Notes under the pieces: generated by a model | The model's input: the letters and a program-made list of their open reading frames with translations, nothing else | The model's database searches: none | Told to the model about the DNA's origin: nothing | Shown: positions 21,252-46,149 of the stretch, one piece after another | Layout of the letters: the number at the start of each line of letters is the position of its first letter | How positions within the stretch are numbered: the stretch's first letter is position 1 | Program-made: the position numbers and the translations under genes | Origin: Smithella sp. | GTDB lineage: Bacteria; Desulfobacterota; Syntrophia; Syntrophales; Smithellaceae | Direction: 5' to 3' | DNA: 60,731 nt | Assembly: GCA_049664145.1 (NCBI GenBank) | Contig: JBATES010000123.1 | Span: 1 to 60,731 of the forward strand

Positions 21252-21258
21252 TCAAAAT

Positions 21259-22496: not shown

Positions 22497-22549
22497 CGTA
22501 AGCAGTTAATGCAAAGGAAAAGGAAACCTTTGCACAATTCTTTTTTTGG

Positions 22550-22619
22550 TCATTCCGGTGAAAACCGGAATCCAGAAAGTACTTAAAAATACTGGATACC
22601 GGCCTAAGCCGGTATGACT
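22550..22619. repeat. REP/MITE-like nested-palindrome element, copy 2
   Basis: GTC-ATTCCGGT-gaaa-ACCGGAAT-CCAG, 16 nt, CTGG-ATACCGGC-ctaa-GCCGGTAT-GAC. Same frame as copy 1, with stems kept by compensatory changes. Confidence 0.6.
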
Positions 22620-22712
22620 AAATTGATGAATTGGTTTGGTTATGCAAAGCAAAAGGCATTTCATCAAAAATATTCATCCCCGGAAACTTAATCCAAAAGA
22701 ACAAAAAAATCT

Positions 22713-24029: not shown

Positions 24030-24078
24030 TTACTTATTCCGTTTTTTCTAAAATAGTTTGTGTCTTATTATAAACAAA

Positions 24079-24987
24079 TCAATTCTTCGGCAAATCATTT
24101 TTATCGAGCTGAAATTTACGAGGACGAAAATTAAGATCACGGTTTGCCTCGCTATGATCAAAAACCATATCCTGATTCATTCTTTCCGCCATGGCAAAAG
24201 ACCAGTGACGAAACGGCGGGAAAACCCGCAGGATGGCCATAGCCGCACGAAATAGCCACAGGGGAAATTGAATAAAGCGACGTGTTTTGCCCAGCGCAGA
24301 AAAAATGCGACAAACCATTTCCCGATAAGTTAACACCTCTCCTCCGGAAATATGATAAAAGCGATTATGAGCCGCACGCGTCTTCAAAGCTTGCACACAG
24401 GCAAACGCCACATCGTTGGCGTGCAGGGGCTGGCGCAGTCCGCGGGCATCACCGAAAACACAAAAGAAAGAAAATCGACGTATGAAAGAGGCTATCACAC
24501 TGATATTTCCATCACGTCCCAGGCCGTAAATCATTGTCGCGCTCAGTATGGTAAAACTTATTTTTTCTTTTTCAGCCCACCCGGTTAAACTTGCTTCCGC
24601 CGTTTTCAGACGTTCCGCCAGTTTTTTTTCAGCCGGATCATCAGAGGTGCTTTTGGTAAATTTACTGGTTGAAGAAACCGTCACGATATGTCTGGCTCCA
24701 TAAGCCAAAAGCATCGGAAAGTATTCCGGCAAGACCCAGATTGGCGCCAGATTAATCCAGTACGATATTTTGTTTTCTGCCGGAGAAATATTGTTGATGT
24801 CCGATAAAGAGGATTTTGTCAGTCGCTTCCAGATAATAGAATTATTTTTCGATGTCGATTGAAAGCACTGTTCCTGACGTGAAAAAGCCACGACATCATA
24901 TCCCTCTTGAACCAATAAGGGCAAAAGAAATTCGCCCACAATGCTTGTCGCGCCAATGACGCCAACGCATCTTTTATAAGTAGCCAT
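24079..24987 (-). CDS. NAD(P)-dependent epimerase/dehydratase-family (SDR) protein
   Basis: Rossmann motif VIGATSIVGEFLLPLL, about 300 aa extended-SDR length, glycan-operon context. Confidence 0.65.
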   Translation of the reverse strand: MATYKRCVGVIGATSIVGEFLLPLLVQEGYDVVAFSRQEQCFQSTSKNNSIIWKRLTKSSLSDINNISPAENKISYWINLAPIWVLPEYFPMLLAYGARHIVTVSSTSKFTKSTSDDPAEKKLAERLKTAEASLTGWAEKEKISFTILSATMIYGLGRDGNISVIASFIRRFSFFCVFGDARGLRQPLHANDVAFACVQALKTRAAHNRFYHISGGEVLTYREMVCRIFSALGKTRRFIQFPLWLFRAAMAILRVFPPFRHWSFAMAERMNQDMVFDHSEANRDLNFRPRKFQLDKNDLPKN

Positions 24988-24991
24988 TTGT

Positions 24992-25879
24992 TTATCTTTT
25001 CATTAAGTTTCTTGCGCTATGGAAAACAGCTACGGCACCGAATCTCAACCAAACACCTATTCCAACAATCCACAACAACAAGCCCGGATATTGATGCCGG
25101 AAAAATTTACGATAGAAACGCATCATGCCTTTATGCTTATGCCATTCCACAAAAACAGGCCTTGCTTGGCTGCAAGTGCCCTGATGATGAACTACCCGGG
25201 CATCCGGGACAAACATTATTTTCCAACCCTTCTGACGAAAACGCATACACCAGTCCAGATCTTCACAGTGCATGAAATAATTCTCATCCAACAAGCCGAC
25301 ATCCGACAAAGCTTCACGCCGGACCAACATACAGGAACCGGAAATGGCCTCCACTTCCGCCGGACTATCCGGCAGCGGTTGTTGATGCAGTAAAAAATCA
25401 GTAAAGAGACGTGGAAATCTTTGACCGAGCTTTGACAATCCAAACGCACGAATAAAAGAACGCCACGGCGTCGGTACGGATCTTCTTCCCCCGGACTGTT
25501 CTGTTCCATCCGGATTGAGCAACAGCGGCCCGGCCATACCTGTTTCCGGCGATGACTTCATAAACGCCAACAACAGCTCCAGGGCATTTCCGTCAATCAA
25601 ACAATCCGGATTCAGAAAAAGCAGATATTCGCAATTGCCGGCAGCTTCAACACCGATATTACATGCCCTCGCAAAACCTAAATTTTTACTATTACGAATG
25701 CAAATCAAACGAGATTGCAAAGCGGCCAGCTGGTCCATTTCATCCATGCTGTGATCTGTAGATCCATTATCAACAACAAACACCTTAGCAACAGACGCCG
25801 AACCCAACAGCATATTGAAAGACTCTTTCAACAAAGGACCGGCATTATAATTGACAATTATTGCTGATACGTTTCGCAT
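24992..25879 (-). CDS. glycosyltransferase family 2
   Basis: VSAIIVNYNAGPLL, VFVVDNGSTDHS, LFLNPDC, CEDLDWCMRFRQKGWKI (rhamnosyltransferase-like GT2 motifs). Confidence 0.85.
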   Translation of the reverse strand: MRNVSAIIVNYNAGPLLKESFNMLLGSASVAKVFVVDNGSTDHSMDEMDQLAALQSRLICIRNSKNLGFARACNIGVEAAGNCEYLLFLNPDCLIDGNALELLLAFMKSSPETGMAGPLLLNPDGTEQSGGRRSVPTPWRSFIRAFGLSKLGQRFPRLFTDFLLHQQPLPDSPAEVEAISGSCMLVRREALSDVGLLDENYFMHCEDLDWCMRFRQKGWKIMFVPDARVVHHQGTCSQARPVFVEWHKHKGMMRFYRKFFRHQYPGLLLWIVGIGVWLRFGAVAVFHSARNLMKR

Positions 25880-26869
25880 TTAGAACCACCTCTGCCGGAT
25901 TTGCTTTAATCCAGGAAGAAACCGCTTATCCAATATTTTCCAGATATCTCCTGAAGATACTTTTCGATTTTTTTGAATTTCGCGCCGTTTCTGCCACATG
26001 CGGGGGATACCATAAAGAGCATCTCTTTTGGCCTTCAATATTACCTTACCCTGACCTCGCACAGTAAACCAGACGATGGTTATGAGATTAAGTGCTATAT
26101 GCGCTGGAAGCAACAGCCAAAACAGCGCACCCGGCATATTTTTTATATACGTCCAAACCAAATTACGGTGGCCGTGATATACGGCAAAATCACTGCGTCG
26201 CCCTCCTGCGGTCGCCGATCCGACATGATAGGCCACAGCCTCGGGTACCAGAAGACAGCGATGACCGGCAAGACGCAGACGGAATCCAAGATCAACATCC
26301 TCAAAATAGCAAAAGAATGCTTCATCAAATCCATTCACTGCTTCCAGGGCATCGCGCCGATATAGCGCGGCCGCCGCGCAGGGAGAAAATATTTCCCTGG
26401 ATTCTATAGAGGCCCTGGATACTGGTTGACCATATCCTGTCCGCCAAGCCAGACCGCTTGCATGCATCGTATCGCCATCACCATCGAGTATTTCTTGATT
26501 TTCAGCCTGTACAAGACGTGATGCAAAAAAGGAATATTCAGGATGGGCCAGTGCCGCTTTTAACATTTTGCTTAGCCACTCCGGCTCCAGAAACGCATCC
26601 GGATTCACCAGCGCTATCCAATCATATCCTTTTGTTTTTTGAAACAGCAGATTGTTCCCGGCCGCAAAACCAATATTATTTTCGCTTTTGAAAAATTTTA
26701 CAGAAGGAAATCTGATTGAGTAATCTTCCGGTATTGGATCCTCGCTGCCATTATCCAAAACAAGTATATCGGAAGTAATGAATTTCTGACCGATAAAGCA
26801 TTCCAGACAACGGACAAGCATGGCGTTTGAGTTATAATTGACAATAAAAATTGCAATTTTATTTTGCAT
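25880..26869 (-). CDS. glycosyltransferase family 2 with C-terminal TM
   Basis: IAIFIVNYNS, ILVLDNGSED, LVNPDAF, FEDVDLGFRLRLAGH. Confidence 0.85.
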   Translation of the reverse strand: MQNKIAIFIVNYNSNAMLVRCLECFIGQKFITSDILVLDNGSEDPIPEDYSIRFPSVKFFKSENNIGFAAGNNLLFQKTKGYDWIALVNPDAFLEPEWLSKMLKAALAHPEYSFFASRLVQAENQEILDGDGDTMHASGLAWRTGYGQPVSRASIESREIFSPCAAAALYRRDALEAVNGFDEAFFCYFEDVDLGFRLRLAGHRCLLVPEAVAYHVGSATAGGRRSDFAVYHGHRNLVWTYIKNMPGALFWLLLPAHIALNLITIVWFTVRGQGKVILKAKRDALYGIPRMWQKRREIQKNRKVSSGDIWKILDKRFLPGLKQIRQRWF

Positions 26870-26980
26870 AAGAACAAATCTGACCTACACTAATAAACTA
26901 TCCTTCAGATAAAAGCATTCATCATAATCGAATAGTGTTTATTGTCATTTGCGATTTGCAGCCCGGAGATTTATTAAAAT

Positions 26981-27046
26981 GTAACTTATCGAAGAAACTG
27001 TCATTTACTACTAAAATCATATTGTAGTGTCAATGGATTAGTTGGA
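26981..27046 (-). promoter_or_regulatory. conserved promoter/leader element, copy A (heads the GT2-GT2-SDR-ligase operon)
   Basis: Minus strand TTGACA, 17 nt, TAGTAA, plus about 25 nt of conserved leader. About 55/66 positions match 58958-59023 by hand alignment. Confidence 0.55.
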
Positions 27047-27323
27047 CTGTTTTTGCCTTTTCGGTGCTGTGCTAGCGAATGAGTTTTTTTTCATAACGAA
27101 ACGATATTCAAAGGCCGGAAATATTTACCCCTCACAAGCCAAAGGACCAATAGAGGATCAACCACTAAACGGAATCAAAACCAGGAACGTTACGGGACAG
27201 TGCCGAAAGCGTTATGGGAAGCGCTTTGGCTTCATTGAAGCACGGTATTTGGATGATTAATTTCAATGCTTTTGTCCGCTTTTTGTCTAAATGCGTTTCA
27301 CTTAAATCTTTAACGATAAACAT

Positions 27324-28754
27324 TCAGTTGCGACTGTGTAAATATTTGACGGAAATCTGTGCGGGTTGTAGGGGAGCAAGATAATATCTCTCAATTAGCA
27401 ACTTTGGAGTGCTAAAAATTGTAAATATTCCTAAAAGGATAACCAGACATAGCGCGATTTTCCGAAATATACCCCCGTAGAATTTTAATCCCCCTGAAAT
27501 GGCATAAGCAATCATAATCATTGGAATTAAAAAATATCGACCTTGAACACTTTGGATCAGGCTGGCAGGATGCTGATTATCTTTTATCAATATTGCAAAG
27601 AATATCAAAAGAATAGAAGTAAGCGCACTGAAAAAAAGGATCGACCGCGCAACCCACTCCTTCTTAAAGTTTTTAGCTGACACGGATAGCAGACCAATCA
27701 AGATAGTGCATGTGAAAAAAAACTTATATGCTTTTGGGCTGAATGGCGTATCCAGCCATCCGAGGTATCCAAAGAAAGACGCTCCATAGAATTGAGCAAG
27801 GCCAATATTCGAAAGTGTCGCCCACAGAACATTGAAGAATTGTAGGGGATTTTTAATGTAAAAGACAGTGGCATTTGATGTTGAATGTCCTACAACAAAT
27901 CTGGAATCAATGGTTGTATGCATTGTAAAACCAAGCCACGCAATAATAAAAAACGCTGCAGCAGTAAAAACACAAAAAAACTTCTTGTTCTTGGTGTAAA
28001 AACAAGCCGCCAAAACAAGGATTACTAAGGGCAGCAAAAAAGGTCTGCTCGTCGTTACCAGAGCGACAGAAAATGTAAGTATATAAAAGAACCAGGGGCT
28101 TGTATTGTCTTTTTCAGTTGTCATTCGTAAAAACGTCGCAATGGCAAGAATTCCCAGGGCGGTTGAAATACCATCCTGACTGGCAGATGAGATTTGAAAT
28201 ACACTCATCGGTATAATGAGCAGAGCGATTGTTAGGGGGTTCACAGGGTATATGTTAAATGTGACGAACAAAATTATTGCGATGGACACAAGAGCTATGA
28301 ATCTGGCCAAACGGTAGGATGTATCGACCGACAGCTTTAATTTTTCACCTAACGCAAGCCCCACTGCTTGAGGCGTGTATATTATCGGAAAATAGTAACT
28401 GATTCCCGGCAAGGAACGGAATTCTTTAGTACCTGTCCATTTAATGCGGTTTGCAGAATATACTTCGTCAGCGGATAACTTTCTTTCTGGTTTGCGTGGC
28501 AGAACTTCATAGGAGGACATGTAGGCCATAAGCCCGGAGTCTATCCTGCCGCCCGAATCCTTCCCTTTGGGCGCATCCAAAACAATCTTACCCTTGCTTA
28601 ATAAATAAGCGCGACTAATATGGTCAAACTCATCCGGAGATTGAAAGGGAGGGATGATTGCTGAAAAAAAAGATCCGGCAACAAGAATAAATAATATCAT
28701 CCACAAACTTACTTTATTTGATGAACCCATGGAGATTTGTTTCTCAAAATCCAT
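27324..28754 (-). CDS. polytopic membrane protein, DUF2142-like (GT-C-type glycosyltransferase candidate)
   Basis: About 12 TM segments. First periplasmic loop has the PDEFDHISRAY motif typical of DUF2142 proteins. Family recalled from memory. Confidence 0.5.
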   Translation of the reverse strand: MDFEKQISMGSSNKVSLWMILFILVAGSFFSAIIPPFQSPDEFDHISRAYLLSKGKIVLDAPKGKDSGGRIDSGLMAYMSSYEVLPRKPERKLSADEVYSANRIKWTGTKEFRSLPGISYYFPIIYTPQAVGLALGEKLKLSVDTSYRLARFIALVSIAIILFVTFNIYPVNPLTIALLIIPMSVFQISSASQDGISTALGILAIATFLRMTTEKDNTSPWFFYILTFSVALVTTSRPFLLPLVILVLAACFYTKNKKFFCVFTAAAFFIIAWLGFTMHTTIDSRFVVGHSTSNATVFYIKNPLQFFNVLWATLSNIGLAQFYGASFFGYLGWLDTPFSPKAYKFFFTCTILIGLLSVSAKNFKKEWVARSILFFSALTSILLIFFAILIKDNQHPASLIQSVQGRYFLIPMIMIAYAISGGLKFYGGIFRKIALCLVILLGIFTIFSTPKLLIERYYLAPLQPAQISVKYLHSRN

Positions 28755-28804
28755 AAAATAAAACCGGTCTCGAGTACCCTATTGCAGCCTGATCCTCGTT
28801 TTGA

Positions 28805-30016
28805 TTAATGACTTTTTTCCACTATAATTCTTCTTATTTTACGAAGCCATTGTCCCGTTGCTGTAGAAGGGGGGAACAAGAAGTTGAGTGCTTTCTTATA
28901 AGTGATTTTCTGTGCAATCTGATCTCTGCGACTTTTTTCAACATCGCGCCTGTATGTTTCTCTGACCCACTTATAATAACATGCGCCCTCTGTAACAACA
29001 AATGGGTTAGGGAAAAGGCCATATAGGTCTCTTCTCACATGCAATATTTTACGTTCAGCTTTTGAAATTAACTTGCCATTCGAATAATCTTTGTATTTAT
29101 ACGGAATTTTTTCTACCAGCTTCTGTCCGTTCTCTATTAACTGTTTCTCGTATATGGCGGATAGAATAGTTACCTCTCGATTCTTATCGTTATAATTCAA
29201 AGCTCTTTGCATCTCGTTATGGTGCCCTCCTGTATCAAAACCGGAAAAATGAAAAAATCTTAATGGCTTCCCATTGACGGTGTACGAACCATCTTCTTTC
29301 CGTTTGATATGCCTTCGAGTCATGTTCCATGTGCAAACATTATATCCCGGGTCTTTCAAGATATGATATCCATCAAAATAAGCCGGGACAAGATCAATCC
29401 ATTTTTGATCCGTAAACATACCAAGAAGACCATCCGGTTCAAGAATATTTAATAATTCATAATCATCATCAAAACAATAAAGCATCAGGCGATTATTCCA
29501 CCACTTTAAAAACTTAAGGCCGGTTTCGTCAGCCTTTACGCCAAAAAAACCCAAATTGTAAGTGCCACGTTTGAGAAATAAGATCTCGTTGGATACGACA
29601 TATGAATCATCTTCTTCAAAGTCAAGTTGATGGGGTGTAAAGATCATACTGTACTTATCAAGCAGAAGATCGATTTCTTGCATTTCCGCAAAAACCATAA
29701 TGTCCGGATCCAGGTACACAACCTTCTCAGCATTGTATTCTTGGATCAACGTGAGGGCAATGGCGGGCTTAACGGCTGTGCATACTTCGGTGACTGTATG
29801 CTTGAAGAAAAATAAATCTTTCTGCGTAATCAATTCAAGCTCATGTGTCAGTAAAATCCCGTCAAAGGGCTCCATGGCCGGATTAAAGTCGAAGGGTAGA
29901 TCACCGGTCAATCCCACGTAAAACTTGCTGTGAGGATTGTACTTCTTCAAAGTTTTGCACAATACCCTTGCCTTGGCGAGATAGTTTTCTGTGATGCTTG
30001 TAAAATAATGGATCAT
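28805..30016 (-). CDS. putative GT-A-fold glycosyltransferase (GT8-like). ATG 30016 behind an AGGTGA RBS is preferred to GTG 30028.
   Basis: N-terminal MIHYFTSITENYLAKARVL, CTAVKPAIALTL and VVYLDPDIMVF (DxD) resemble nucleotide-diphospho-sugar transferases. Strongly A+T-rich. Confidence 0.45.
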   Translation of the reverse strand: MIHYFTSITENYLAKARVLCKTLKKYNPHSKFYVGLTGDLPFDFNPAMEPFDGILLTHELELITQKDLFFFKHTVTEVCTAVKPAIALTLIQEYNAEKVVYLDPDIMVFAEMQEIDLLLDKYSMIFTPHQLDFEEDDSYVVSNEILFLKRGTYNLGFFGVKADETGLKFLKWWNNRLMLYCFDDDYELLNILEPDGLLGMFTDQKWIDLVPAYFDGYHILKDPGYNVCTWNMTRRHIKRKEDGSYTVNGKPLRFFHFSGFDTGGHHNEMQRALNYNDKNREVTILSAIYEKQLIENGQKLVEKIPYKYKDYSNGKLISKAERKILHVRRDLYGLFPNPFVVTEGACYYKWVRETYRRDVEKSRRDQIAQKITYKKALNFLFPPSTATGQWLRKIRRIIVEKSH

Positions 30017-30071
30017 AATGAATGTCACCTTCGTATCGTATATATTCAGCTCAATAAATGATGCATCCTGT

Positions 30072-32966
30072 CTAACAGACTATGCCCGCGTTATGATACG
30101 GGTCTCCCTGCTCAAAATATAATTTCCATTTGTTTCTAAAGAACAGACTTTCGGATTGTAATCTGGCAGATTTTTCCGGCGTCTTATCAAGACCCCTCGA
30201 TACGCTTTCATAATGATAAAGCTCTGCATAGGGTGTCCATACATTTATCTTTCCTGTTTCCCGCAACTTCAGGCAAAAATCAACATCATTCAAGCCAATT
30301 TTGAAGTTGATCTCATCCATGCCACCAACTTCAAGGTACAGACGCTTCTTCACCATTAAACATGCACCAGTCACTGCACAATAATTTTGTGGCATTGTCA
30401 ACCTGTGCATATAACCGGTATGTCTTCGGTCATTCCCATGATGATAATGCGAAGCAATATCTCTCGTAAGGCCTATCACCAGCCCGGCATGTTGTATCCG
30501 GTTATCGGCATAATAAAGTTTGGCACCCACTGCGCCAACGTCTTCACGTTGAGAAAATGCCAGCATTTCTTCAATCCAATGCGGAGTAATCACTTCCGTA
30601 TCATTATTGAGTAACAGGACATGCTCCCCTTCCGCACACTGAACTGCATAATTATTGATGGCGGAAAAGTTGAATTCTTTTCCAGTGATTTTGATGATCT
30701 TAATCTCTTTTACATTCTTTAATGCATCGTAATATTCGAAGATATCATCCGTTTCACTGTTGTTTTCAACGATAATAATCTCATAATTCCTATAGGTCGA
30801 TCCTGTCATGATGGAGTCGATACATTTTTTTAAATCCTGCTTATGGTCCTTATTGGGAATAATAATGGAAACGAGCGGATTTCCCTTGATTTTGTAATGA
30901 ATTCTGAAGGAGTAGGTTGCCCTCATAAATTCAACATCACCTTCATATCCGATCCGCTTGATATGTTCCTCTATCGCTTTTCTTCCAGCTTCATACGCAT
31001 ACATTTTACTTTCAGGATTCAGGGCAACAGACCCCTGACCAGCCCGGCTGAAATAAAGCACTTTAGGGATATTTAAAATCTTTCGTGCTTTCTCGATTAC
31101 TCTTAATTCAAATTCATAATCCTGGCTGCCATCATACCCTTGTTTGAGGAATCCGACTTCGTCAATGATGAATCGGGAAAACGCAGTAAGATGACTCGCA
31201 TAGTTACAGGAACGGAGCAAATCCGGGCTGAAGCCGGGAAGGCAATGGTAGGCAAGAATCTCTTTTGTTTCATCTGAAAAAACTGCCTTATCCGAATATA
31301 TAAAATCGGCTTCGCTATTTTTATTGATACAAAGAACCACTTCCATCAGAGCATCTCTGCTCAAGCAATCATCATGGTCTAACAAGATGATGTAATCACC
31401 GTGGGCAATGGCATAGGCTTCGATGGAATTGCCGGCGATCCCTTTGTTTTCTTCCAGAAATACAACCTTAATCCTTTGATCCAGTTTCTGCCATTGCAAC
31501 AGACAATCTTTCGTTTCCTTTCCACTGCCGCCATCAGCTATGCACAATTCCCAGTATGGATAGACTTGGTTGCGTACTGTTTCGATGGTTTCATTCAACC
31601 ATTCCGGTTTAGTGTTATACGTGGGCATCACCACCGAGATCAACGGCTTATGTTCAAAACTATCAATTAAAGCTTTCATTTGGGCGAGTGATTCTTCCGA
31701 GTATGTGTCATTCTGAGGAATCCGATAGGGCACAGAGGTGGCAAGCATCCGGAAACCCCGCTTGATACCAGGCAGGCCTTCATGACGGTATAGACGCATT
31801 GCTTTCGTAATCGTGCTTTTCAGACCGCCCCCTCGCTGAATAGCAGGTCCGGCAAGATCAACAGCGCGTTGGAATCTTTTTAGCTGTTGGCCGACAATGC
31901 GCAGCGGCAGCGTAATCTGCCAACTGGTTGACGATATGAGTTCAGAAATCTGACCATCACGTTCAGCCACGGATCGATGGAGATTGACGATCTGCGCATC
32001 GCGTTTGGCTACCGATTGACGAAGGTCGGCAATCTGACTGTCACGTTCTATAGCGATTTGGTTGAGATCGTCAATCTGGCGCTTGAGATCAAGGGATGTT
32101 TTATGGATTATGGATGCCTTTCTAATATCCTGATTATAAAATAAAGAACTTAATCTTTTATATTCAGCCCTGATTTTATCTATATCCGTTAAAACATTCT
32201 CATCCATTTCTGTACTATTGTGAGCATGCAACAGGATTTCATAAAAACGATCAATCAATGAGAGTGTGTCGCTAGCGAAGTTTAGCTCTTTTATATTATG
32301 ATGTTTCAACTTTGGATCTAATAATTCTTTGGCTATAACATCGAACGGTGATCCCGCATTCGGAAAATCGATGTTGAATTGATTAAAAATACAATGAAGG
32401 GTATCGGTCGGATATGTTAAAAAATCGTCAAATTTCAGGAAGATTCTTTTTGATGGCCGGCTGTAATACTCAATCGACAGCATGTTGTTCATCCACAGAA
32501 GAAGCCCCTTCTGAATGGAAAATCCATCCCTTGTTTTCAGTGATTCAGCCACTTCCAACGGATGTCTCAGCGGAATGATAAAGAATGGCTCAATATTGAG
32601 TTCCTGCAATATGCTGATCCAAAAGGGCAGGAGAATGGATATTCTCGGATCTTTAATACAAAACAATCGACTGGTAGAAAATTCCTGCTGGATAATTTTT
32701 TTAACAGCGTCGATATGGGGTATTAATTGCGGCATCCGCCACCATTCGTCTTCAAATAAAAACAGGTCATCCCACGATGAACCTAGTGTTTGCAGAATAT
32801 GATCATTCGCTTTGACAATGTAATCATTCTCAAAATATCCTTTTTCATTATATTCATTGGGCAACATCAGTTTCGATCCTAACGATATACCCAATTTGCT
32901 TAAATATCCGGTAACGGCTGACGTGCCGCTTCGGTGCATTCCTAATACGATTATACATTGCTGCAT
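30072..32966 (-). CDS. multidomain protein: N-terminal sulfotransferase - coiled coil - GT2 - GT2 (964 aa)
   Basis: aa 1-250: PAPS 5'-PSB loop VLGMHRSGTS, CIKDPRISILLPFW, 3'-PB-like RHPLEVAES. aa about 291-348: heptad-rich repeats. aa 441-690: VVMPTYNTKPEWL, LLDHDD. aa 705-964: IIIPNKDH, LLLNNDTE, GLNDVDFCLKL. Confidence 0.8.
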   Translation of the reverse strand: MQQCIIVLGMHRSGTSAVTGYLSKLGISLGSKLMLPNEYNEKGYFENDYIVKANDHILQTLGSSWDDLFLFEDEWWRMPQLIPHIDAVKKIIQQEFSTSRLFCIKDPRISILLPFWISILQELNIEPFFIIPLRHPLEVAESLKTRDGFSIQKGLLLWMNNMLSIEYYSRPSKRIFLKFDDFLTYPTDTLHCIFNQFNIDFPNAGSPFDVIAKELLDPKLKHHNIKELNFASDTLSLIDRFYEILLHAHNSTEMDENVLTDIDKIRAEYKRLSSLFYNQDIRKASIIHKTSLDLKRQIDDLNQIAIERDSQIADLRQSVAKRDAQIVNLHRSVAERDGQISELISSTSWQITLPLRIVGQQLKRFQRAVDLAGPAIQRGGGLKSTITKAMRLYRHEGLPGIKRGFRMLATSVPYRIPQNDTYSEESLAQMKALIDSFEHKPLISVVMPTYNTKPEWLNETIETVRNQVYPYWELCIADGGSGKETKDCLLQWQKLDQRIKVVFLEENKGIAGNSIEAYAIAHGDYIILLDHDDCLSRDALMEVVLCINKNSEADFIYSDKAVFSDETKEILAYHCLPGFSPDLLRSCNYASHLTAFSRFIIDEVGFLKQGYDGSQDYEFELRVIEKARKILNIPKVLYFSRAGQGSVALNPESKMYAYEAGRKAIEEHIKRIGYEGDVEFMRATYSFRIHYKIKGNPLVSIIIPNKDHKQDLKKCIDSIMTGSTYRNYEIIIVENNSETDDIFEYYDALKNVKEIKIIKITGKEFNFSAINNYAVQCAEGEHVLLLNNDTEVITPHWIEEMLAFSQREDVGAVGAKLYYADNRIQHAGLVIGLTRDIASHYHHGNDRRHTGYMHRLTMPQNYCAVTGACLMVKKRLYLEVGGMDEINFKIGLNDVDFCLKLRETGKINVWTPYAELYHYESVSRGLDKTPEKSARLQSESLFFRNKWKLYFEQGDPYHNAGIVC
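31923..32048 (-). repeat. 3 x 42-nt in-frame tandem repeat encoding the coiled-coil core
   Basis: ERDSQIADLRQSVA / KRDAQIVNLHRSVA / ERDGQISELISSTS (aa 307-348 of the 964-aa protein). Confidence 0.7.
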
Positions 32967-33288
32967 TTTTTACTCACACAACATCTGTTACTAAAATCTT
33001 TGTGATAGCTGACGACCACTTGACAATTTCATACTTGTTTCAAATATCCAGAATAAAGGCAATGCTTTCTTCCACCGTCAGTAAATCTGTTTTTTAACAA
33101 AATCCTCTGATTTTATAGCCCTTCATTCTGAATAGCACTTTTTTTCAAAAGCCTTTTCCTTCCGGCGGCAAGGATTTTTATTTAGTGCGGGCTTGCCTCT
33201 GACACCATGATGAATTGGAAAATTAGAAAAGATTTGAACTTACCCTAATCAACTTCTATTCGCAGCATCGACACTTTGGATCAATACT

Positions 33289-34230
33289 TTAATCATTTCG
33301 TGAAAGAACTTTTAAATTGTAACGCAAATCTTCCAATAATTTACGGTTCGCTGAGAGCAAATCAGCGACAACGGCAATGAGAAGTGTCTGAAAGCCCATA
33401 CCAATCAGCACACTGGTGAGAATCAGCGATTGTATGTGGCCGTCACCTTGCCCATTGATATAAAACCACATAAAACGCAATCCAATCAAAGTACCGGCCC
33501 CGAACAATACAATTCCAATCGAGAAAAAAAACCGAAAGGGCCTATAAATGATAAAGATGCGAACAATCGTAACGATGCTGTGGATAATATATGATGGAAT
33601 ACTTTTCACAAGCCTTGAGGGGCGCATATCCTGATTCACGCGGATGGGTATCGAAGTAATCGCCATGTTTTTTTGACCAGCCTGAATGATGGTTTCCAGC
33701 GTATAGGTATAATTATTAAAGACGATCAGTTGCTGGGCGGCATTACGAGTCATGGCACGAAAACCGCTTGCCGCATCAGGAATGTCTGTCCGGCTCGCCG
33801 TTCTGACAACCCAGCTTCCTATTTTCTGGAGCATCTTTTTAACCGGAGAAAAATGATTAATATTGTCGATCGGCCTTTCGCCCACAACAATATCCGCCTG
33901 TCCATTGATAATCGGCTGAATTAAAGACGGAATATCGTCCGCGTTATACTGATTATCAGCATCCGTATTGACAATGATATCAGCGCCAAGACGAACAGCT
34001 TCCCGGACGCCCGTCATAAAAGCGCGGGCTAGCCCCTGATTTCGGGTATGCCTCACAATGTGATCCGCACCATTTTCCTGCGCAACTTTTACAGTCGCAT
34101 CCATACTGCCATCATCAATAACCAGCCATTCGACTTTATCAAAACCCGGCACTGTGCGCGGAAGCGCAGAAAGTGTTATAGTAAGAGTATCCGCTTCATT
34201 GTAACACGGAATTTGTATAATGAGTTTCAT
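33289..34230 (-). CDS. polyprenyl-phosphate glycosyltransferase (GT2; GtrB/ArnC/DPM1-like)
   Basis: IQIPCYNEADTL, VIDDGSMDAT, NTDADNQY, and two C-terminal TM helices characteristic of GtrB/ArnC-type enzymes. Confidence 0.8.
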   Translation of the reverse strand: MKLIIQIPCYNEADTLTITLSALPRTVPGFDKVEWLVIDDGSMDATVKVAQENGADHIVRHTRNQGLARAFMTGVREAVRLGADIIVNTDADNQYNADDIPSLIQPIINGQADIVVGERPIDNINHFSPVKKMLQKIGSWVVRTASRTDIPDAASGFRAMTRNAAQQLIVFNNYTYTLETIIQAGQKNMAITSIPIRVNQDMRPSRLVKSIPSYIIHSIVTIVRIFIIYRPFRFFFSIGIVLFGAGTLIGLRFMWFYINGQGDGHIQSLILTSVLIGMGFQTLLIAVVADLLSANRKLLEDLRYNLKVLSRND

Positions 34231-36032
34231 TTTCCATCCTTTCCCGAAATCGAAATAAGCGGGCGGAGTACCTTGGGGTCAAGGCCATCGATGCGATAGA
34301 TATAATATTTATCTTCATTCACGCTGTATTCTCGGAGGGGTTTAAGATTAAAGAGCATACTGGAAACAAGAAGTGATGGGGATTGAATTGAAGCGAATTG
34401 AAAACCAGCCTGCGTTGAAACATCTTGTATCAAAATCTGCTTTTGCTTCACTCCCCAGAATGCAAGCCTTCGCTGGTTCATTTTCATGGCCCAATCTTTA
34501 CCACGGAAACTTTGACTCATCAATGGTGACAAGTCTTTACTGTCTGTATAGATATTAAATGTATCACCATGATCATTAAGGTTTGCTATGGCATAGGCCA
34601 TTTGCCGATAATGAAGACCATTCTGATAGGCAGACATTCTTTTGGCATCCACCATTATGGATACCAGCATAAACACAATCATGGGCAATACAAACAATCG
34701 AATATCAGTTTTTCGAAAGCGCAAAAATATCAAAGGCAGTAGAACACTGGCGATAGCTGTTAAATACACCGATGACGAAACCATGGCTATAACATCAACT
34801 CCACCGGATTCGCTTATGGGAATAGATATAGCATATTTTCCAATAGCTTTATTAAAAAGGATCTCCCAAGCTAAGAAGGAAAACCCGACCAACACGCCTA
34901 TACCGATGCATGCTTTCATATCTCGAAATGGCGCCTTTCTTTCAACAATCCTTTCCAGAAACCATAAGCCAACAACTAACATAATCGGCGATAAATGCAT
35001 CAGGTAGCGCCCGATCAAACGCTGCGGCACAGGGTAGTTATAACCTGCTCCAAAAGAGTGCTGGACGGCGAGGAGCCAATAACAACCCAAAAGTAGCAGG
35101 GCAAGAACAAGAAACAGTCTCTGTTGTGTGTCCAAGCGAATCCGCAAGGCTTTATCACTGAATTGAGACGCCCAGATTACGATCATCCCCCAGATAGGAA
35201 GCCAGGCCAGAATGACGTAGGAACTATAAGCCGCAACCCACATTAATAAAGAACCGCCTGTGGCTGCCTGTGCTATCCCTCCAGAGATGCCTAAACCAAA
35301 TAGCTGCCTTAAGTAAAAATCACTGGCCAAACCGTAAATCAGCCAAGCCCCCATAACCACACCGTAGCTTGCTAATACTAAAAATGCAGGCCTGTATCGG
35401 CGGAGCAGACTTTCGGATCTGGTATCCGGCATATTCATGCTGCGAGAGTACAACCATGCACCGAAAAGCAGTGGCAACGCTGGAAGAAACAGGTATTTCG
35501 TAAGATGGGTAATTCCTAAAACGAAGCCGAAGCCCAACGCTTCAACATTTCCGCGCTTGTCTCCCCGTAGTGCCAATGCCACGGCTATAACAAAAAGCGG
35601 CACAAATAAATTTTCACTTAATAGAAGATTTGTATATACAATGTGCATCGGCAATAAACCCGCAAGCAACGCTGCAAGTAATGGATGCCGCACATTGGCT
35701 GCACGCGCAAGGAACCAGGTAGCCGGAACGACGAGGCTTGACCAAAAAGCGTTTTGAACGAGCATAACCTCATACCAATGCTTAAAAAAAAGAGCGGGGG
35801 CAAGCACTAAGGGATATAAAGGCGGGTAATGCGCGGTCGCGTATTTTTGAAGAGCAAAAATTGCGCAAGCATTTAATTTATAGGTTAATTCATCAGGATA
35901 CGCTGGCCCGGAAGAAATGAGGACAGCCCATATCGCCTTAAAGGCAAACAGGACAAGGGTCATCAAGGCCAAAACGGGCAGGTCTTTATATGGTGAATCA
36001 TTCACGTTCGATATTTGGTTATTTATGTTCAA
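34227..36032 (-). CDS. GT-C-fold membrane glycosyltransferase (ArnT/PMT, GT39/GT83-like)
   Basis: About 12 TM segments. First-loop acidic motif AYPDELTY. 4-nt overlap with the downstream GtrB-like gene. Confidence 0.7.
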   Translation of the reverse strand: MNINNQISNVNDSPYKDLPVLALMTLVLFAFKAIWAVLISSGPAYPDELTYKLNACAIFALQKYATAHYPPLYPLVLAPALFFKHWYEVMLVQNAFWSSLVVPATWFLARAANVRHPLLAALLAGLLPMHIVYTNLLLSENLFVPLFVIAVALALRGDKRGNVEALGFGFVLGITHLTKYLFLPALPLLFGAWLYSRSMNMPDTRSESLLRRYRPAFLVLASYGVVMGAWLIYGLASDFYLRQLFGLGISGGIAQAATGGSLLMWVAAYSSYVILAWLPIWGMIVIWASQFSDKALRIRLDTQQRLFLVLALLLLGCYWLLAVQHSFGAGYNYPVPQRLIGRYLMHLSPIMLVVGLWFLERIVERKAPFRDMKACIGIGVLVGFSFLAWEILFNKAIGKYAISIPISESGGVDVIAMVSSSVYLTAIASVLLPLIFLRFRKTDIRLFVLPMIVFMLVSIMVDAKRMSAYQNGLHYRQMAYAIANLNDHGDTFNIYTDSKDLSPLMSQSFRGKDWAMKMNQRRLAFWGVKQKQILIQDVSTQAGFQFASIQSPSLLVSSMLFNLKPLREYSVNEDKYYIYRIDGLDPKVLRPLISISGKDGK

Positions 36033-36134
36033 TTGAGGTAAGATCTATATTTGATGCGCGATTGATATTTCAGTCACCGCATTTAATTTTATTCTTGTGC
36101 CACACTATTCGAGGGCTTGCCGTGGGTGGCGCCC

Positions 36135-37168
36135 TTAATCATCTGCAACACCTGCCGACGAATCGGCGCTTCCGTCCAATGGGAATTTGCGCGCAAAGTA
36201 TTTTCCACTACAGGTAAGGCGTTCCAGGTAACTTTCATCCAGAGTATTCGGTCCGCTATTTCCGTACGTCCAGAATAAGGCGTGATTACTGGCGGCAACG
36301 CGTAGTGCTTTCATATTACCAATAAGAGTATGAAAGTAGGATTCGTCAGGGATAAAGCACCGGGAAAAATGTTCGGCAATTTGCGGATGATCCTCTGGCA
36401 CCTTTAACAACAACTCGGCAACGCGACGCGATATGCCGAACCATTGTCCGCCAACGTAACAGTTCTCATAATCAAACAATGGAAAGCAGCCTTTCCCATT
36501 CGCTATTGTCATTTTAAAAATCAGCTTTCCCAACCGTTGCCGCAGTCGCCCTGTCAAAGTGGCCTCCGGCCTAGACAGGGCGCAATTCAACACGAGTCCA
36601 TCTGCTGAGCCGTCTTTTCGCTGCCTAGCCACCATGAGCGCGACGTCATGGCTATTCGCATGGCACGCCGGGAGCGCGTAAGATAACGCCATCCGTGGCT
36701 AAGCAGGATATCTGATCCTGGGTTGGTAAGTAGTTCCAGGTCGATCATCGCGTCAGGTTGCGTCGCCGCCAAATATGATTCAAAGTCCTTAATCGAGCGA
36801 ATCGGCAGACAGCTTTCAGACAATAGTTGGAAATGGGTACACTGCGGATCGCGCATCTCCTCCTGCATTAGCAGAGCGCAGGCCTCGACCAAAGACCATC
36901 CGGCCCACGCCGTATTTAGCGGTTGCGGCAGTATGATAACATTAGGCCGTTCAATGTCAAAATCGTAATGCTTTGAAAAATCATGATGTACTATAACCCT
37001 GTGCGGATAGACGGCGTTCGCAAGCTGTGTAACAGCAGCGGCAGAATCCCTGCATGAAAGGACACCGAAGGCGATTTTTGGATACTGCATTTTGTCCTGT
37101 TCTTGTATCATGATGGCAATCAGCTCTGTTTGTCTTCGGTTAGAAAATCGTATAGCATGATTTTTCAA
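36135..37168 (-). pseudogene. GT14 (core-2/I-branching 'Branch' family) glycosyltransferase gene split by a frameshift
   Basis: Two overlapping ORFs in different frames (36587-37168 and 36135-36692). The N-part reads KIAFGVLSCRD...VIVHHD; the C-part reads GGQWFGISRR...YFARKF. Total length 1034 nt is not a multiple of 3. Confidence 0.6.
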
Positions 37169-37197
37169 AAAACTTGTTTCGGTTCAACTTCAAGGTT

Positions 37198-37739
37198 TCA
37201 ACTGCCAGCATTGGACAGCGAACACAACCGGGTATATATTTTTTCGGCTTTCCGGAACGAAAGTGAACCGGGAAGAGTTCTTTTCAGACTAGCATCTACA
37301 AAACTTAAGCTGATATCAGCTTGCAGAAAATCTGATATACGAGAAATTCCCCGGCCATCAATAATGTCGTCATAATTTATAAAAAGAAAGACTGTATCTT
37401 TTTTTAAATACTTTTCCCAAACAGGCAATGTATAGGAAAAATGGGGATCTTTATAACAGAAAGGCACTTTATTTATTTCTTTAGTGAATTTTCTCCAATA
37501 TTTCAATTGATTCATTTCCAATATCGATTTGTGGTGTGATAGAGGACAGCCAGTTTCCGCGCTTTTTTACCTTGTTCATGCATCTTCAGATGCAAGTTAG
37601 TGCTCAATGGGGGCATATATTTCTCTAAAAGTTTAAAAATATACAATTCAAACTGTTTGCTTATTATACTCTTTTCATAAAGCTTTTCAAAAGGCTCAAA
37701 CATACCAGTTTGAAAGTAATAAATACTACCCAACAGCAA
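37198..37739 (-). pseudogene. probable eroded sulfotransferase remnant (two short A+T-rich ORFs of 75 and 107 aa)
   Basis: PFCYKDPHFSYTLPVWEKYL resembles CIKDPRISILLPFW of the 964-aa sulfotransferase domain, and FLFINYDDII resembles its IFLKFDDFL. There is no PAPS P-loop, and the roughly 55 aa between the motifs are missing. Confidence 0.3.
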
Positions 37740-37748
37740 ACAATTTAA

Positions 37749-39818
37749 TTATGAAGCATCTCCATTGCCTAAAAAAGTATGCTTTGCCCATGGCTGAGAT
37801 CGATCCCAGCCATTTGCAGATATTGTTTTGAGTTCACGTTTGCTTGGAAGAACAAGCCTGTCTGCACTGAATGTAGCACGCGTGCCATGCCAACCGCGCT
37901 GCTCCACTTCCTCGCGGGAATAAATGCGTTCGTTTCCATATTTTGCGATGGCATGGGCACGGCTTAAGACAATATAGTGACGCAGAATGAAATTATCCGG
38001 ATATATCTTCCTGCCTTCAAAGTTAGCGCTGTGCCCGCCGGAAGAGACGATATCGACGGTCTGGCCGGTATTTTTCCATGCTTTGATCTGCCGTAAAGGT
38101 ATTGGTTCGAAAAAATAATAATACTGCATTTTTTCAACATAATCCGTTCCTTCAAAAGACTCATCGTCTGATGTGGGCAGAAAAATAAATTCATCAAAGT
38201 TGATGGCATTGTAGCCTTCCTGATCGGCTTGCAGGATACCTTCATACAGAGATTTAAAAGGCGTGGGCGCTTCGCGGATTTCGTCGGCATCCAAATGAAT
38301 AAACCAATCAGCATCAATTTCTCTTGATAGTTGTGCTTTGTAAGATAGCAAATTCGTCCAATCATAAAAACCCGGGAAGGGTTGTGTTTCAATTCGAAAT
38401 ACAGCGTGGCCAAGATATTTATGCGCAATTTCCAAAGTGGAATCAGTCGATTCATTATCAATCACACATGTCTCAATGCCTTGTTCATACAAATGTCTCA
38501 AGCATCGATCAAGATACAACGCCTCGTTCCGAACCGTGAGCAGGGCAACGATGCGAATCTTTGATCGTGTATGAATACCCAGGTCAACTGTACCAAGAAA
38601 TGTTTTATTCTTTTCTATTACCTCGAATGACAACAGCCCCGCCTGTTTGTCAATGGGCTGAAAGACTGTCTCTGAAGCCCGGTCTTCGAGTCTGACCGTG
38701 ATGTGATAACGCCCGGCGGCCAGGTTCGCGCTGAAACGCGCAATAATCGCTCCCTTTTTCCATCCTTCACCGTCTAAAATACCATTAAGAGGGAAAAAAC
38801 TGCCTCCCACATCCATCATTCTGCGATCGTGGATGATTAAACTAATATAAGGGTTGGGCAACGACGTAAGGTGTTTAGCTTCGATACGTACTTCAATTTC
38901 TTCTCCTTTCATATAGCTGGAGAACAAGCCTTGTGAATTCGTAAAACTTGCCGATAGAATCTGGCCTTCTTCCGTGCCGAAGGCGATGCCGTTTTTTTCA
39001 CCCAGAAAAGGCTTGACCGTAATATGCTTGCCGGCGGCGGCATAACGGCGCTGCTCATCACGCATATCCATGTAATACCGTTCCGCCATTTCTTCCGGAG
39101 CGCCCCGAGCCCTCTCCCGCCCCTCCTGAAGATATAAAACTTGATGACAAAAATTCTTCATCATACTTACATCATGGGAAACAAAAAGGACGGTGGTGCC
39201 GCCGGATGTCAGAATCCGCAATCTGTCCAGACATTTAAACTGAAAGGCTGCATCGCCAACCGCCAGCGCCTCATCAATGATGAGAATATCCGGGTCCACG
39301 CAAACGGAAACCGCGAAAGCAAGCCTTACCAGCATTCCGCTCGAATATGTTTTCACAGGCTGTTCGATGAAATCGCCAATATCCGCAAACGCTGCAATAT
39401 CCTCAAAGCGGGCATTGATTTCCTCCTGGCTCAACCCCAGAATGGCGCCGTTCATAAAAACATTCTCGCGGCCGGTGAAATCAGGATTGAAACCGGAGCC
39501 CAGTTCCAGTAAGGCAGCAACGCGGCCGTGGGTTTCCACGCTCCCCGTGGTTGGCGAAATGGTGCCGCAGATCAATTGCAAAAGAGTGGATTTTCCAGAA
39601 CCATTGCGGCCAATGATGCCAACCGTCCTGCCCTTGATCACCTCGAATGAAATATCCCTGAGCGCCCAGAATTCGCGATAGTATTGTCCCGGTGTCATAC
39701 CCATAAGGCGTCGAATCCGGGGATAAATAGACTGTTTGAGCCGGTCGTTGGGCTGGTCGTAGATCTGATAGCATTTGCTGAGATTGTTAACCCGTATGGC
39801 AATATTTTCAGAGGACAT
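37749..39818 (-). CDS. wzt: O-antigen ABC exporter ATPase Wzt with a C-terminal carbohydrate-binding-type domain and an additional GT2-like domain
   Basis: Walker A GRNGSGKST, signature YSSGMLVRL, Walker B ILIIDEAL, H-loop SHD. aa about 295-420 form a beta-rich Wzt_C-like module. aa 437-706 have LTVRNEALYL, VIDNESTDST, HLDADE (GT-A). The ATG at 39818 overlaps the wzm stop. Confidence 0.8.
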   Translation of the reverse strand: MSSENIAIRVNNLSKCYQIYDQPNDRLKQSIYPRIRRLMGMTPGQYYREFWALRDISFEVIKGRTVGIIGRNGSGKSTLLQLICGTISPTTGSVETHGRVAALLELGSGFNPDFTGRENVFMNGAILGLSQEEINARFEDIAAFADIGDFIEQPVKTYSSGMLVRLAFAVSVCVDPDILIIDEALAVGDAAFQFKCLDRLRILTSGGTTVLFVSHDVSMMKNFCHQVLYLQEGRERARGAPEEMAERYYMDMRDEQRRYAAAGKHITVKPFLGEKNGIAFGTEEGQILSASFTNSQGLFSSYMKGEEIEVRIEAKHLTSLPNPYISLIIHDRRMMDVGGSFFPLNGILDGEGWKKGAIIARFSANLAAGRYHITVRLEDRASETVFQPIDKQAGLLSFEVIEKNKTFLGTVDLGIHTRSKIRIVALLTVRNEALYLDRCLRHLYEQGIETCVIDNESTDSTLEIAHKYLGHAVFRIETQPFPGFYDWTNLLSYKAQLSREIDADWFIHLDADEIREAPTPFKSLYEGILQADQEGYNAINFDEFIFLPTSDDESFEGTDYVEKMQYYYFFEPIPLRQIKAWKNTGQTVDIVSSGGHSANFEGRKIYPDNFILRHYIVLSRAHAIAKYGNERIYSREEVEQRGWHGTRATFSADRLVLPSKRELKTISANGWDRSQPWAKHTFLGNGDAS

Positions 39819-40659
39819 CGGCAAATCCCTTTCGTGTCTTTTGAAACCAGGCAAATCCGGCCCAGGCAATGATCAGCCCAACCACCATCATAATGCACCA
39901 GGTAACCGGATCAGGCAGTTTCCCGAGGATCAATACGTTTCTCCCCTCTTCGATAATCACGGCCAGGGGATTGAGTCTCATCCATATTCGGTAGGTCTCC
40001 GGTAGAGAGCTAATCGGAAAAAACACACCGGATATAAATAAAAGCACGGTCGTTATGATGCCGGTTATTTGACCGATATCGCGCATAAATACGCCCAGTG
40101 ACGACAGAAACCACGCGAATCCGATTGTTGCAAATACAAGCGGAAGCATAACGACGGGAAAAAGCAGCGCCGTAAAAGGGATATGCCCCATAAAGATTAG
40201 TTGGGCGACGATCAGGACGACCAGGCTTATGACCGCGTGAAAAAGCGCGGACCCGAATGCGATCCACGGCAGTATATCCAACGGGAAGACCACCTTTTTA
40301 ACGTAGTTGACGTTGGAAAGAATAAGTCCCGGCGCGCGATTAACACATTCAGCAAATAATCCATGAATAATCATGCCGACAAAAAGCATCATAGCGAAAT
40401 CCATTTTACCTTCCTGCACGTTAATGCCCCAGCGTGTCTTGAAGACAACTGAAAAAACAAAGGTATAAATAACCAGCATCAGCAGGGGATTGAAAAACGA
40501 CCACGCCATTCCCATCAATGAGCCCTTGTAGCGGCCTACCACTTCGCGCTTGGCCATCTGCACAATGAGCTGGCGGTTATGCCACAGGTTTCTGACCAGC
40601 GCCGCGGGCGATGTGGGATGGGCGGCATGGGGATTGACTTCTATGAGGGAATTAGTCAT
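39808..40659 (-). CDS. wzm: O-antigen ABC exporter permease (ABC-2 type, Wzm)
   Basis: Six TM segments. REVVGRYKGSLMGMAWSFFNPLL N-terminal ABC-2 motif. Paired with wzt. Confidence 0.85.
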   Translation of the reverse strand: MTNSLIEVNPHAAHPTSPAALVRNLWHNRQLIVQMAKREVVGRYKGSLMGMAWSFFNPLLMLVIYTFVFSVVFKTRWGINVQEGKMDFAMMLFVGMIIHGLFAECVNRAPGLILSNVNYVKKVVFPLDILPWIAFGSALFHAVISLVVLIVAQLIFMGHIPFTALLFPVVMLPLVFATIGFAWFLSSLGVFMRDIGQITGIITTVLLFISGVFFPISSLPETYRIWMRLNPLAVIIEEGRNVLILGKLPDPVTWCIMMVVGLIIAWAGFAWFQKTRKGFADVL

Positions 40660-46144: not shown

Positions 46145-46149
46145 CTTCT

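Follow-up and report, generated by a model that had tools for sequence, protein, structure and literature searches.

A single open reading frame (ORF) on the minus strand of a 60,731-nucleotide stretch of DNA from Smithella sp. (GenBank assembly GCA_049664145.1, contig JBATES010000123.1; the whole stretch is referred to below as the window) encodes, at positions 30072–32966, a 964-residue protein in which a sulfotransferase-fold domain, a coiled coil, a joint motif, a linker and two GT2 glycosyltransferase modules follow one another. We lean towards reading this protein as a terminator, ruler and polymerase in one polypeptide, of the type of WbbB, WsaE and Klebsiella O7 ORF6, with sulfate as the cap that ends the chain. 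The gene is, as judged from sequence comparison, a natural chimera, in which a gene for the sulfotransferase and coiled coil (ST-CC) was fused in frame to a resident polymerase gene.

The protein was first proposed, at these positions, in an earlier prediction made from the sequence alone, and is confirmed as a single ORF running from ATG to stop, although its strand was absent from that prediction. The sulfotransferase-fold domain (residues 1–278; 32133–32966) is supported by invariant columns, the AlphaFold (AF2) model, Foldseek matches and the PF13469 matches of homologues. It is followed by the coiled-coil spacer (residues 284–345; 31932–32117), recognized by a heptad test, by its place in a single AF2 helix and by a spacer length that varies among homologues, and by the joint motif STSWQITLPLR (residues 346–356; 31899–31931), where an invariant W349, a helix break and a recombination breakpoint coincide. 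A helical linker (residues 357–440; 31647–31898), marked by the start point of the stand-alone 605-residue polymerases P0123 and P0124, leads to the first GT-A/GT2 module (residues 441–690; 30897–31646; Pfam PF00535, with the DxD motif D530-H-D532-D533) and the second (residues 691–964 plus the stop codon; 30072–30896; Pfam PF13641/PF13632, with N787-N-D789 and H918/E920). The public gene call for this locus (P0121, 931 residues) starts 33 residues downstream, at what would be Met34, and thereby loses the first 33 codons (32868–32966), including the loop assigned below to binding of 3'-phosphoadenosine 5'-phosphosulfate (PAPS). Alignments with homologues begin at residue 1, which shows the longer ORF to be correct; with the PAPS loop omitted, automated annotation would see only a "glycosyltransferase". 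The full-length AlphaFold model (predicted local distance difference test score, pLDDT, 87) contains one helix from residue 256 to 344, a break at 345–346, three shorter helices of lower confidence reaching to residue 408 and, after these, two GT-A domains modelled with confidence.

Searched directly against Pfam, NCBIfam and PDB sequences, the N-terminal domain gave nothing significant, the Pfam Sulfotransfer_3 match on the protein reaching 14.6 bits against a cut-off of 27 and covering residues 5–30 only; its assignment therefore rests on the predicted structure, Foldseek and homologues. The AlphaFold model of residues 1–279 (mean pLDDT 88) has sulfotransferases as all five of its top PDB matches (E 6.5e-5 to 7.9e-4, template-modelling (TM) scores 0.44–0.51): the CurM sulfotransferase (4gbm, E 6.5e-5), TPST2 (3ap3), a tick TPST, a second TPST2 chain and TPST1 (5wri). 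P-loop kinases, which share one fold with sulfotransferases, come next in the list. Sulfotransferase families are also matched by the homologues themselves, PF13469 (Sulfotransfer_3) by 19 of the 44 full-length homologues (E <= 1e-3, best 1.9e-7) and PF00685 (Sulfotransfer_1) by three. A search with residues 1–279 returned 1322 relatives, mostly stand-alone proteins of 280–490 residues, some of which NCBI lists as "sulfotransferase family protein" and a minority of which match PF13469, and a profile search of 1.84 billion representatives gave a family of 12,520 clusters at 50% identity (E <= 1e-30). This subfamily is mostly missed by Pfam and almost always has a C-terminal helical extension.

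Conservation within the head points in the same direction. G9, M10, R12, S13, G14, T15, S16, E46, W65, D66, K105, D106, P107, R108, R134, S142, R146, W158, E166, R170 and R174 are invariant in 34 relatives, and GxHRSGTS, E46, K105-x-P107-R108 and R134-x7-S142 are invariant both in this alignment and in that of the 44 full-length homologues. The loop xxRSGTS (residues 9–16), in which the Walker-A lysine of kinases is absent, corresponds to the 5'-phosphosulfate (5'-PSB) loop of PAPS enzymes, and R134-x7-S142 is spaced as in the 3'-phosphate motif of sulfotransferases. The latter aligns in register with RNPKDxxVS of the SULT enzymes, in a profile match below threshold; such sub-threshold SULT matches, in register, were all that the 34-sequence profile found in the PDB. 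On sequence and model, then, the N-terminal domain is a PAPS-type sulfotransferase fold, predicted to transfer sulfate from PAPS. This upholds the original prediction, whose motifs GMHRSGTS (residues 9–16), KDPR..LLPFW (105–116) and RHPLEVAES (134–142) were all found and whose proposed structure prediction, once run, placed sulfotransferases as the best matches.

Residues 284–345 form nine unbroken, proline-free heptads (a = ASIAIVIVI, d = ILLRLRLRL), hydrophobic at 14 of the 18 a/d positions, and only one of 5000 shuffles was as good. They fall inside the predicted 89-residue helix (residues 256–344), include a 14-residue repeat, ERDxQIxxLxxSVA, and would span about 9 nm if extended. The predicted coiled coil was thus borne out by the heptad test, its length being about 62 residues in place of the roughly 55 first given. 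W349 of the joint motif is invariant in all 44 fused homologues and permits the two sides to be measured separately: the distance from H222 in the sulfotransferase to W349 ranges from 88 to 198 residues (a variation of 110), and that from W349 to the first GT2 module from 56 to 130, most values lying between 87 and 117. The layout is that of a variable-length rod on a linker of much the same length in most homologues. Among 179 stand-alone relatives, 55 carry the motif 14–48 residues from the C-terminus; whether the protein is fused or split, then, this motif is where the rod ends. An oligomerizing coiled coil of this kind would serve as a chain-length ruler. The stand-alone relative P0005 has 14 coiled-coil residues (two heptads) more than the window protein; it is the only clear case of its kind, and the idea that spacer length changes in whole heptads across homologues was set aside, the modulo-7 distribution being uneven and not clean.

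The polymerase half is matched by Pfam PF00535 in two stretches (E 1.1e-43), and D530/D532/D533, N787/D789 and H918/E920 are invariant in the 44 homologues; the two complete GT2 domains of the original prediction are accordingly both present, Pfam placing them at residues 444–573 and 699–926, with an invariant DxD. Its best solved sequence relative is the chondroitin polymerase K4CP of E. coli K4 (E 2.9e-16, in two stretches), and K4CP, Pasteurella heparosan synthase 2 (PmHS2) and LARGE1 head its Foldseek matches. Each of these three has two GT-A domains and adds two sugars in alternation. In relatives, rmlBAC closes the conserved block in which the polymerase lies, and some fused homologues adjoin rml genes too; with rml genes beside relatives, rhamnose is a reasonable guess for one sugar, and one sugar of the glycan is probably rhamnose. 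Directly after the polymerase gene lies that of a soluble 407-residue protein (28805–30028, minus strand) with a YLDPD motif and no Pfam or NCBIfam match. Its counterpart always occupies the position directly after a GT2–GT2 polymerase (408 residues in L001, 403 in L005 and 407 in L093), and it is possibly a further, unrecognized glycosyltransferase working with the polymerase.

The same GT2–GT2 polymerase carries different heads in different genomes. In homologues it is preceded by S-adenosylmethionine (SAM)-dependent methyltransferase heads (PF13489, PF08241, PF08242, PF13578), in some (P0127, P0142, P0174, P0193) by a methyltransferase and a sulfotransferase head together, and in other relatives it stands alone as a protein of 605 residues that starts just after the joint motif. 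The double-headed homologues recall the kinase plus methyltransferase of WbdD and suggest doubly modified chain ends. The closest relative of the polymerase half is the Smithella protein P0122 (87% protein identity over residues 316–964), in which the motif STSWRITMPLR is preceded by a pyruvyltransferase, two additional GT2 domains and a coiled coil of short length. By blastn, window positions 20811–31931 and 56242–60645 match the P0122 locus (L005) at 85–90% identity, positions 31944–32973 share 70% identity with a stand-alone ST-CC gene in locus L003, and positions 33140–42797 match the rest of L003 (GT2, membrane protein, Wzt with a carbohydrate-binding module (CBM), Wzm and CysNC) at 72–87%. 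Parentage switches at codon 345/346, the start of the joint motif, where the window and the Smithella polymerase gene have TCAACCAGTTGGC in common, with homology only downstream of it, where DNA identity to that gene is about 90%; 13 identical bases are common at the junction. About 24 kb of central cluster, at 31944–56242, thereby stands in place of about 6.3 kb of the otherwise collinear locus L005 (positions 6226–12545); its two breakpoints fall within the coiled-coil gene and at the 3' end of the short wzt. The two blastn parentages and the switch at the joint motif therefore indicate, at the level of sequence, that a segment of about 24 kb with sulfate import, PAPS synthesis, a CBM transporter and ST-CC replaced the centre of a Smithella glycan cluster, and that its ST-CC gene was joined in frame to the resident polymerase. 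O-antigen loci exchange cassettes in this manner.

The architecture is not peculiar to the window. A full-length search returned dozens of proteins of 950–1100 residues (98–100% query coverage, 33–54% identity), a scan with our own profile found a sulfotransferase head in about 95 of the 120 best matches, and the four-part architecture recurs in many phyla, complete genomes included, usually beside wzm/wzt. Eight fused loci were compared, namely the window, L001 and L087–L092. A Wzt with the Wzt_C domain occurs in six of them (five of the six loci L087–L092), as does a nearby gene, within 10 kb, for adenosine 5'-phosphosulfate (APS) kinase (again five of L087–L092); the CBM-bearing Wzt directly adjoins the fused gene in four loci and is 5–7 kb away in the window and in L089. 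The order in Pseudomonas sp. SP16.1 (L087) is rmlBDAC-wzm-wzt(Wzt_C)-fusion, with an APS kinase 9 kb downstream, and that in L092 is APS kinase-wzt(Wzt_C)-fusion. L089 has both Wzt(Wzt_C) and APS kinase within 10 kb. A divergent wzt(Wzt_C) adjoins the fusion in L090, with an APS kinase about 7 kb downstream, and in L091, with no APS kinase within 10 kb. L088 has an APS kinase and a short Wzt, and L001, the closest full-length homologue (54% identical), a short Wzt and no cys genes. L090 also has, at 7379–8185, a gene with a weak sulfatase match; it directly adjoins the CBM-bearing wzt and has a BNR/sialidase-like gene as a neighbor.

The sulfotransferase head is present in Proteobacteria, Desulfobacterota, Nitrospirota, Firmicutes, Bacteroidota and further phyla. 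A pattern scan limited to a single genome for each species gave at least 568 loci that encode it. Eighty of these were fetched: the head is N-terminal in 70, has a C-terminal extension of at least 40 residues in 74 and is fused to the same GT2 type in 18; genes of the cysN/C/D type are present in 11, and a Wzt lies within 10 kb in 24, of which 13 within 1.5 kb. Each of the eight Wzt C-terminal extensions tested by Pfam gives a Wzt_C match with E < 1e-5, and in seven cases the score exceeds the Pfam cut-off. Split forms, in which a stand-alone ST-CC gene adjoins a GT2–GT2 gene, were found in L086, L036, L027 and L044, with the order wzm-wzt(CBM)-ST-CC(596 aa)-GT2-GT2(829 aa) in L086.

Within the window, sulfate and export genes lie upstream of the fused gene, all on the minus strand: a sulfate-type ATP-binding cassette (ABC) importer comprising an ATPase, two permeases and a periplasmic binding protein (43598–47121), CysD (42672–43598; PF01507), a CysN/CysC fusion (40771–42675; NCBIfam NF004035, 926 bits; PF01583), the ABC-2 permease Wzm (39808–40659) and Wzt (37749–39869). 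This Wzt, whose true start is probably Met18, consists of an ABC ATPase, Wzt_C (residues 296–430, E 1.4e-13) and a GT2-like region (residues 445–706), and is co-inherited with the ST-CC gene in L003/L004. At 4.8 kb from the fused gene, it is the Wzt with a binding-type C-terminal domain that the original prediction had put 5 kb away.

From these components, the following route may be proposed. A WecA-type enzyme would prime the lipid carrier, and the two C-terminal GT-A modules would alternate in extending a disaccharide-type repeat at the non-reducing end, while the coiled coil, as an oligomer, would keep a distance of about 9 nm between the polymerase and the N-terminal sulfotransferase. Once a chain was long enough to reach the head, sulfate would be moved onto its terminal sugar from PAPS, which the CysD and CysN/C encoded in the cluster would make from imported sulfate, and would block further extension. 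The capped chain would then be exported by Wzm/Wzt, probably after recognition of the cap by Wzt_C, and ligated to an acceptor. The product would be an undecaprenyl-diphosphate-linked, ABC-exported glycan, probably an O antigen; Tol-Pal genes elsewhere in the window mark the organism as diderm. We infer from the layout and its precedents that sulfate would sit on the non-reducing end only and stop growth, that rod length would set chain length and that the CBM would read the sulfate.

The main rival retains the sulfotransferase and moves the site of sulfation: as a tethered decorator, the head would sulfate internal residues, once per repeat or at random, and yield a polyanionic polymer, the coiled coil acting only as a scaffold or means of oligomerization. 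As far as is known, the sulfated polysaccharides of bacteria carry sulfate within their repeats, and the heavy investment in sulfate import and PAPS, together with two further sulfotransferases in the cluster, suggests that a chain receives several sulfates, unless these two sulfotransferases act on a different glycan; Wzt proteins lacking a CBM in some fused loci also suit a decorator. Such an enzyme would, however, have no obvious need for the C-terminal extension found in 74 of 80 loci or for the terminal joint motif of 55 of 179 stand-alone relatives, and the interchange of the head with cap-forming methyltransferases in the same slot, the CBM-bearing Wzt in six of eight fused loci and a domain order and variable-length helix that match those of proven terminators (PMC11231755) speak for action at the chain end. 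Internal sulfation thus seems to us rather unlikely, while being the alternative to be taken most seriously. Several further observations weigh against a sulfate cap. The computed evidence does not separate terminal from internal sulfation; no characterized member was found in this sulfotransferase subfamily; and no paper in the literature searched reports a sulfotransferase terminator or a sulfate-capped glycan of an ABC pathway. The coiled coil is short next to that known from WbdD. The window holds two Wzm/Wzt pairs, either of which may be the export partner, and the polymerase half of the chimera stems from a backbone that uses the CBM-less pair. The CBM of the window looks different, by eye only, from those near the sulfotransferase genes of other genomes, and since the Wzt proteins of L001 and L088 have no binding module, CBM-gated export is not obligatory for the family.

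Two other explanations would remove the sulfate or the protein's function altogether, and both appear highly improbable. If the recombination signal arose in metagenome assembly, or from a recent and non-functional recombination, the protein would do nothing coherent. The contig does belong to a metagenome-assembled genome (MAG), parentage does switch at codon 345/346, the ST-CC half has no database relative above 73% identity, and the neighboring Branch gene (36135–37168) is split into two overlapping ORFs. Yet the ORF is intact and in frame, its junction falls exactly at a natural domain joint, where split and fused forms diverge, and gene order and orientation in both arms of the 24-kb replacement are those of the Smithella backbone; the 13 common bases are judged, from typical assembler k values, too short for a k-mer misjoin, and the fused architecture occurs independently in dozens of clusters, including complete genomes. 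Least probable of all is a P-loop kinase, or some other transferase that depends on a nucleotide, as the N-terminal domain; it would phosphorylate the chain terminus as WbdD does. The shared fold, the position of PFKFB and guanylate and adenylate kinases next in the Foldseek list with similar TM scores (0.33–0.40) and a weak Pfam AAA_18 match (E 0.045) are what could be said for it. These are countered by the lack, in GxHRSGTS, of a Walker-A lysine before Thr/Ser, by the invariant R-x7-S in register with the SULT sequence RNPKDxxVS, by the exclusively sulfotransferase identity of the five best structural matches, by the PF13469 and PF00685 matches of homologues and by the co-localization of APS-kinase or CysNC genes in six of eight fused loci. 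The reading of the protein as a terminator, ruler and polymerase with a sulfate cap is supported, in turn, by the recurrence of the fusion beside wzm/wzt and APS kinase, by the PAPS and sulfate genes within the cluster and by the equivalence of the head slot.

The remaining genes of the cluster, all on the minus strand, suggest a larger biosynthetic repertoire. A WecA-like initiating transferase (Glycos_transf_4; 57790–58863) is followed by a Wzm/Wzt pair (56220–57764) that lacks a binding module on its Wzt and belongs to the conserved Smithella backbone. The block at 47190–56119 contains a Wzx-type flippase (47190–48638), two stand-alone sulfotransferases (48745–49680 and 55175–56119; PF13469/PF00685) among GT1/GT2 genes, a polysaccharide pyruvyltransferase (52875–53954) and a radical-SAM/SPASM protein (54030–55178). 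The two extra sulfotransferases, the pyruvyltransferase and the radical-SAM/SPASM gene suggest a second, internally sulfated and pyruvylated polymer, and, with two Wzm/Wzt pairs and a Wzx-type flippase in one cluster, more than one glycan may be made.

The GT2-like third domain of the CBM-bearing Wzt, which follows its ABC ATPase and Wzt_C domains, matches PF13704 (E 1e-9); it is a separate gene of 266–274 residues by wzm/wzt in L001 (3903–4727) and L007 (3677–4477) and is fused again in L003. We know of no description of a transporter-CBM-glycosyltransferase fusion. Next to this gene, the overlapping ORFs 36135–36692 and 36587–37168 match the C- and N-terminal halves of Branch (core-2/I-branching enzyme, PF02485), and are probably one gene broken by a frameshift or sequencing error; in L003 their position is taken by a 267-residue sulfotransferase. 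A multi-pass membrane protein of 601 residues with about eight predicted helices and no Pfam match (34227–36032) and a GtrB-like GT2 with C-terminal membrane helices (33289–34230) together look like a periplasmic, post-export glycosylation system; the pair is conserved in L003/L004, where one version of it matches DUF6077. On the other side of the fused gene lie a DUF2142 protein (27324–28754), two GT2 genes (24992–26869), an RmlD-like reductase (24079–24987) and a membrane protein of the Wzy_C / O-antigen-ligase family (22713–24029).

Length control by capping is known from a few enterobacterial and Geobacillus prototypes, with methyl, methyl-phosphate and 3-deoxy-D-manno-octulosonic acid (Kdo) caps. 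A sulfate cap, if true, would be a new chemistry, giving a charged and antigenically distinctive chain end, and appears widespread. We tentatively extend this, in a proposal that falls a little short of probable, to the view that sulfate may join methyl, methyl-phosphate and Kdo as a fourth chemistry of termination, added to chains by a very large ST-CC family and read by Wzt modules, with STSWxxTxPLR as a plug-and-play seam for head exchange. In one strain the polymerase (87% identical in protein) has a head that includes a pyruvyltransferase, and here it has a sulfotransferase head; a conserved 11-residue motif forms the joint, and this seam shows a cut-and-paste point for terminator modules where glycans are to be engineered with a set length and end-group. 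As an experimental entry, the locus of Pseudomonas sp. SP16.1, from an NCBI genome assembly and a genus that is generally culturable, would be better than the uncultured Smithella MAG. The terminator-ruler-polymerase principle is established; sulfate-cap chemistry is undemonstrated in the literature searched; and the swap of heads caught here at a defined seam is a further observation. The main text of a 2024 review of polysaccharide sulfotransferases contains none of the terms "coiled", "O-antigen", "lipopolysaccharide" and "ABC transporter", and the 2019 census of Mann, Kimber and Whitfield reportedly "predicted new chemistries" and may already list sulfotransferase heads.

Comparison with characterized systems places the window protein among ABC-pathway terminators by layout and among PAPS enzymes by its head. 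The original prediction had drawn its parallel with WbbB and WbdD; the likeness of layout stands, and closer precedents are found in Klebsiella O7 ORF6 and Geobacillus WsaE. The split WbdD/WbdA systems (E. coli O9a and O8; Klebsiella O3 and O5), in which the terminator sits on a coiled-coil ruler and the multi-GT polymerase is a separate protein that it recruits, are mirrored by P0005 and by the stand-alone ST-CC genes near GT2–GT2 genes in L086, L036, L027 and L044. WbdD comprises kinase and methyltransferase domains and a C-terminal membrane-binding helix, and WbdA contains GT4-type mannosyltransferases. No Pfam, NCBIfam or PDB match to a kinase or SAM-methyltransferase domain was found in the window protein, which is not homologous to WbdD/WbdA and may work like WbdD without being a member of its family. 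WbdD itself is a terminator precedent of ABC-dependent glycan assembly (PMC11231755). WbbB (Klebsiella O12 / Raoultella terrigena) polymerizes, terminates and measures within one protein, its terminator lying at the N-terminus, its two GTs at the C-terminus and a coiled coil between them (PMC11231755). Its terminator is a GT99 beta-Kdo transferase, whereas the N-terminal domain described here has a sulfotransferase fold; no GT99/WbbB chain is among the PDB sequence or fold matches of the protein, and no PDB sequence match falls outside its GT2 region. A sulfotransferase-domain gene beside WbbB in Aeromonas salmonicida (PMC4483657) was considered and rejected, as it encodes a separate 216-residue protein and not this architecture.

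Klebsiella pneumoniae O7 ORF6 combines a methyltransferase/kinase, a coiled coil and two GT2 domains in one polypeptide and works with Wzm/Wzt-CBM, export requiring termination (PMC11231755). By described module order it is alike in terminator head, coiled-coil ruler and two C-terminal GT2 domains; its head forms a methyl-phosphate cap from SAM and ATP, whereas that of the window protein has a sulfotransferase fold and no methyltransferase/kinase domain. WsaE, of the S-layer glycan of Geobacillus stearothermophilus, is a trifunctional soluble protein with an N-terminal cap domain and two rhamnosyl-GT domains, encoded directly after wzm-wzt, and its cap is 2-O-methyl (PMC2943079); this gene layout is that of the Pseudomonas sp. 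SP16.1 locus L087. Methylation by WsaE in vitro is independent of chain length, and ruler behavior is not established for it (PMC2943079). With the PAPS-dependent sulfotransferases CurM ST, TPST1/2, Stf0 and NodH, the head has the fold, the 5'-PSB loop and R-x7-S in common, and it forms a distinct, very large subfamily beside them. NodH clusters with the dedicated PAPS synthesis genes NodPQ, and the window gene, like NodH, is clustered with dedicated PAPS synthesis genes of its own.

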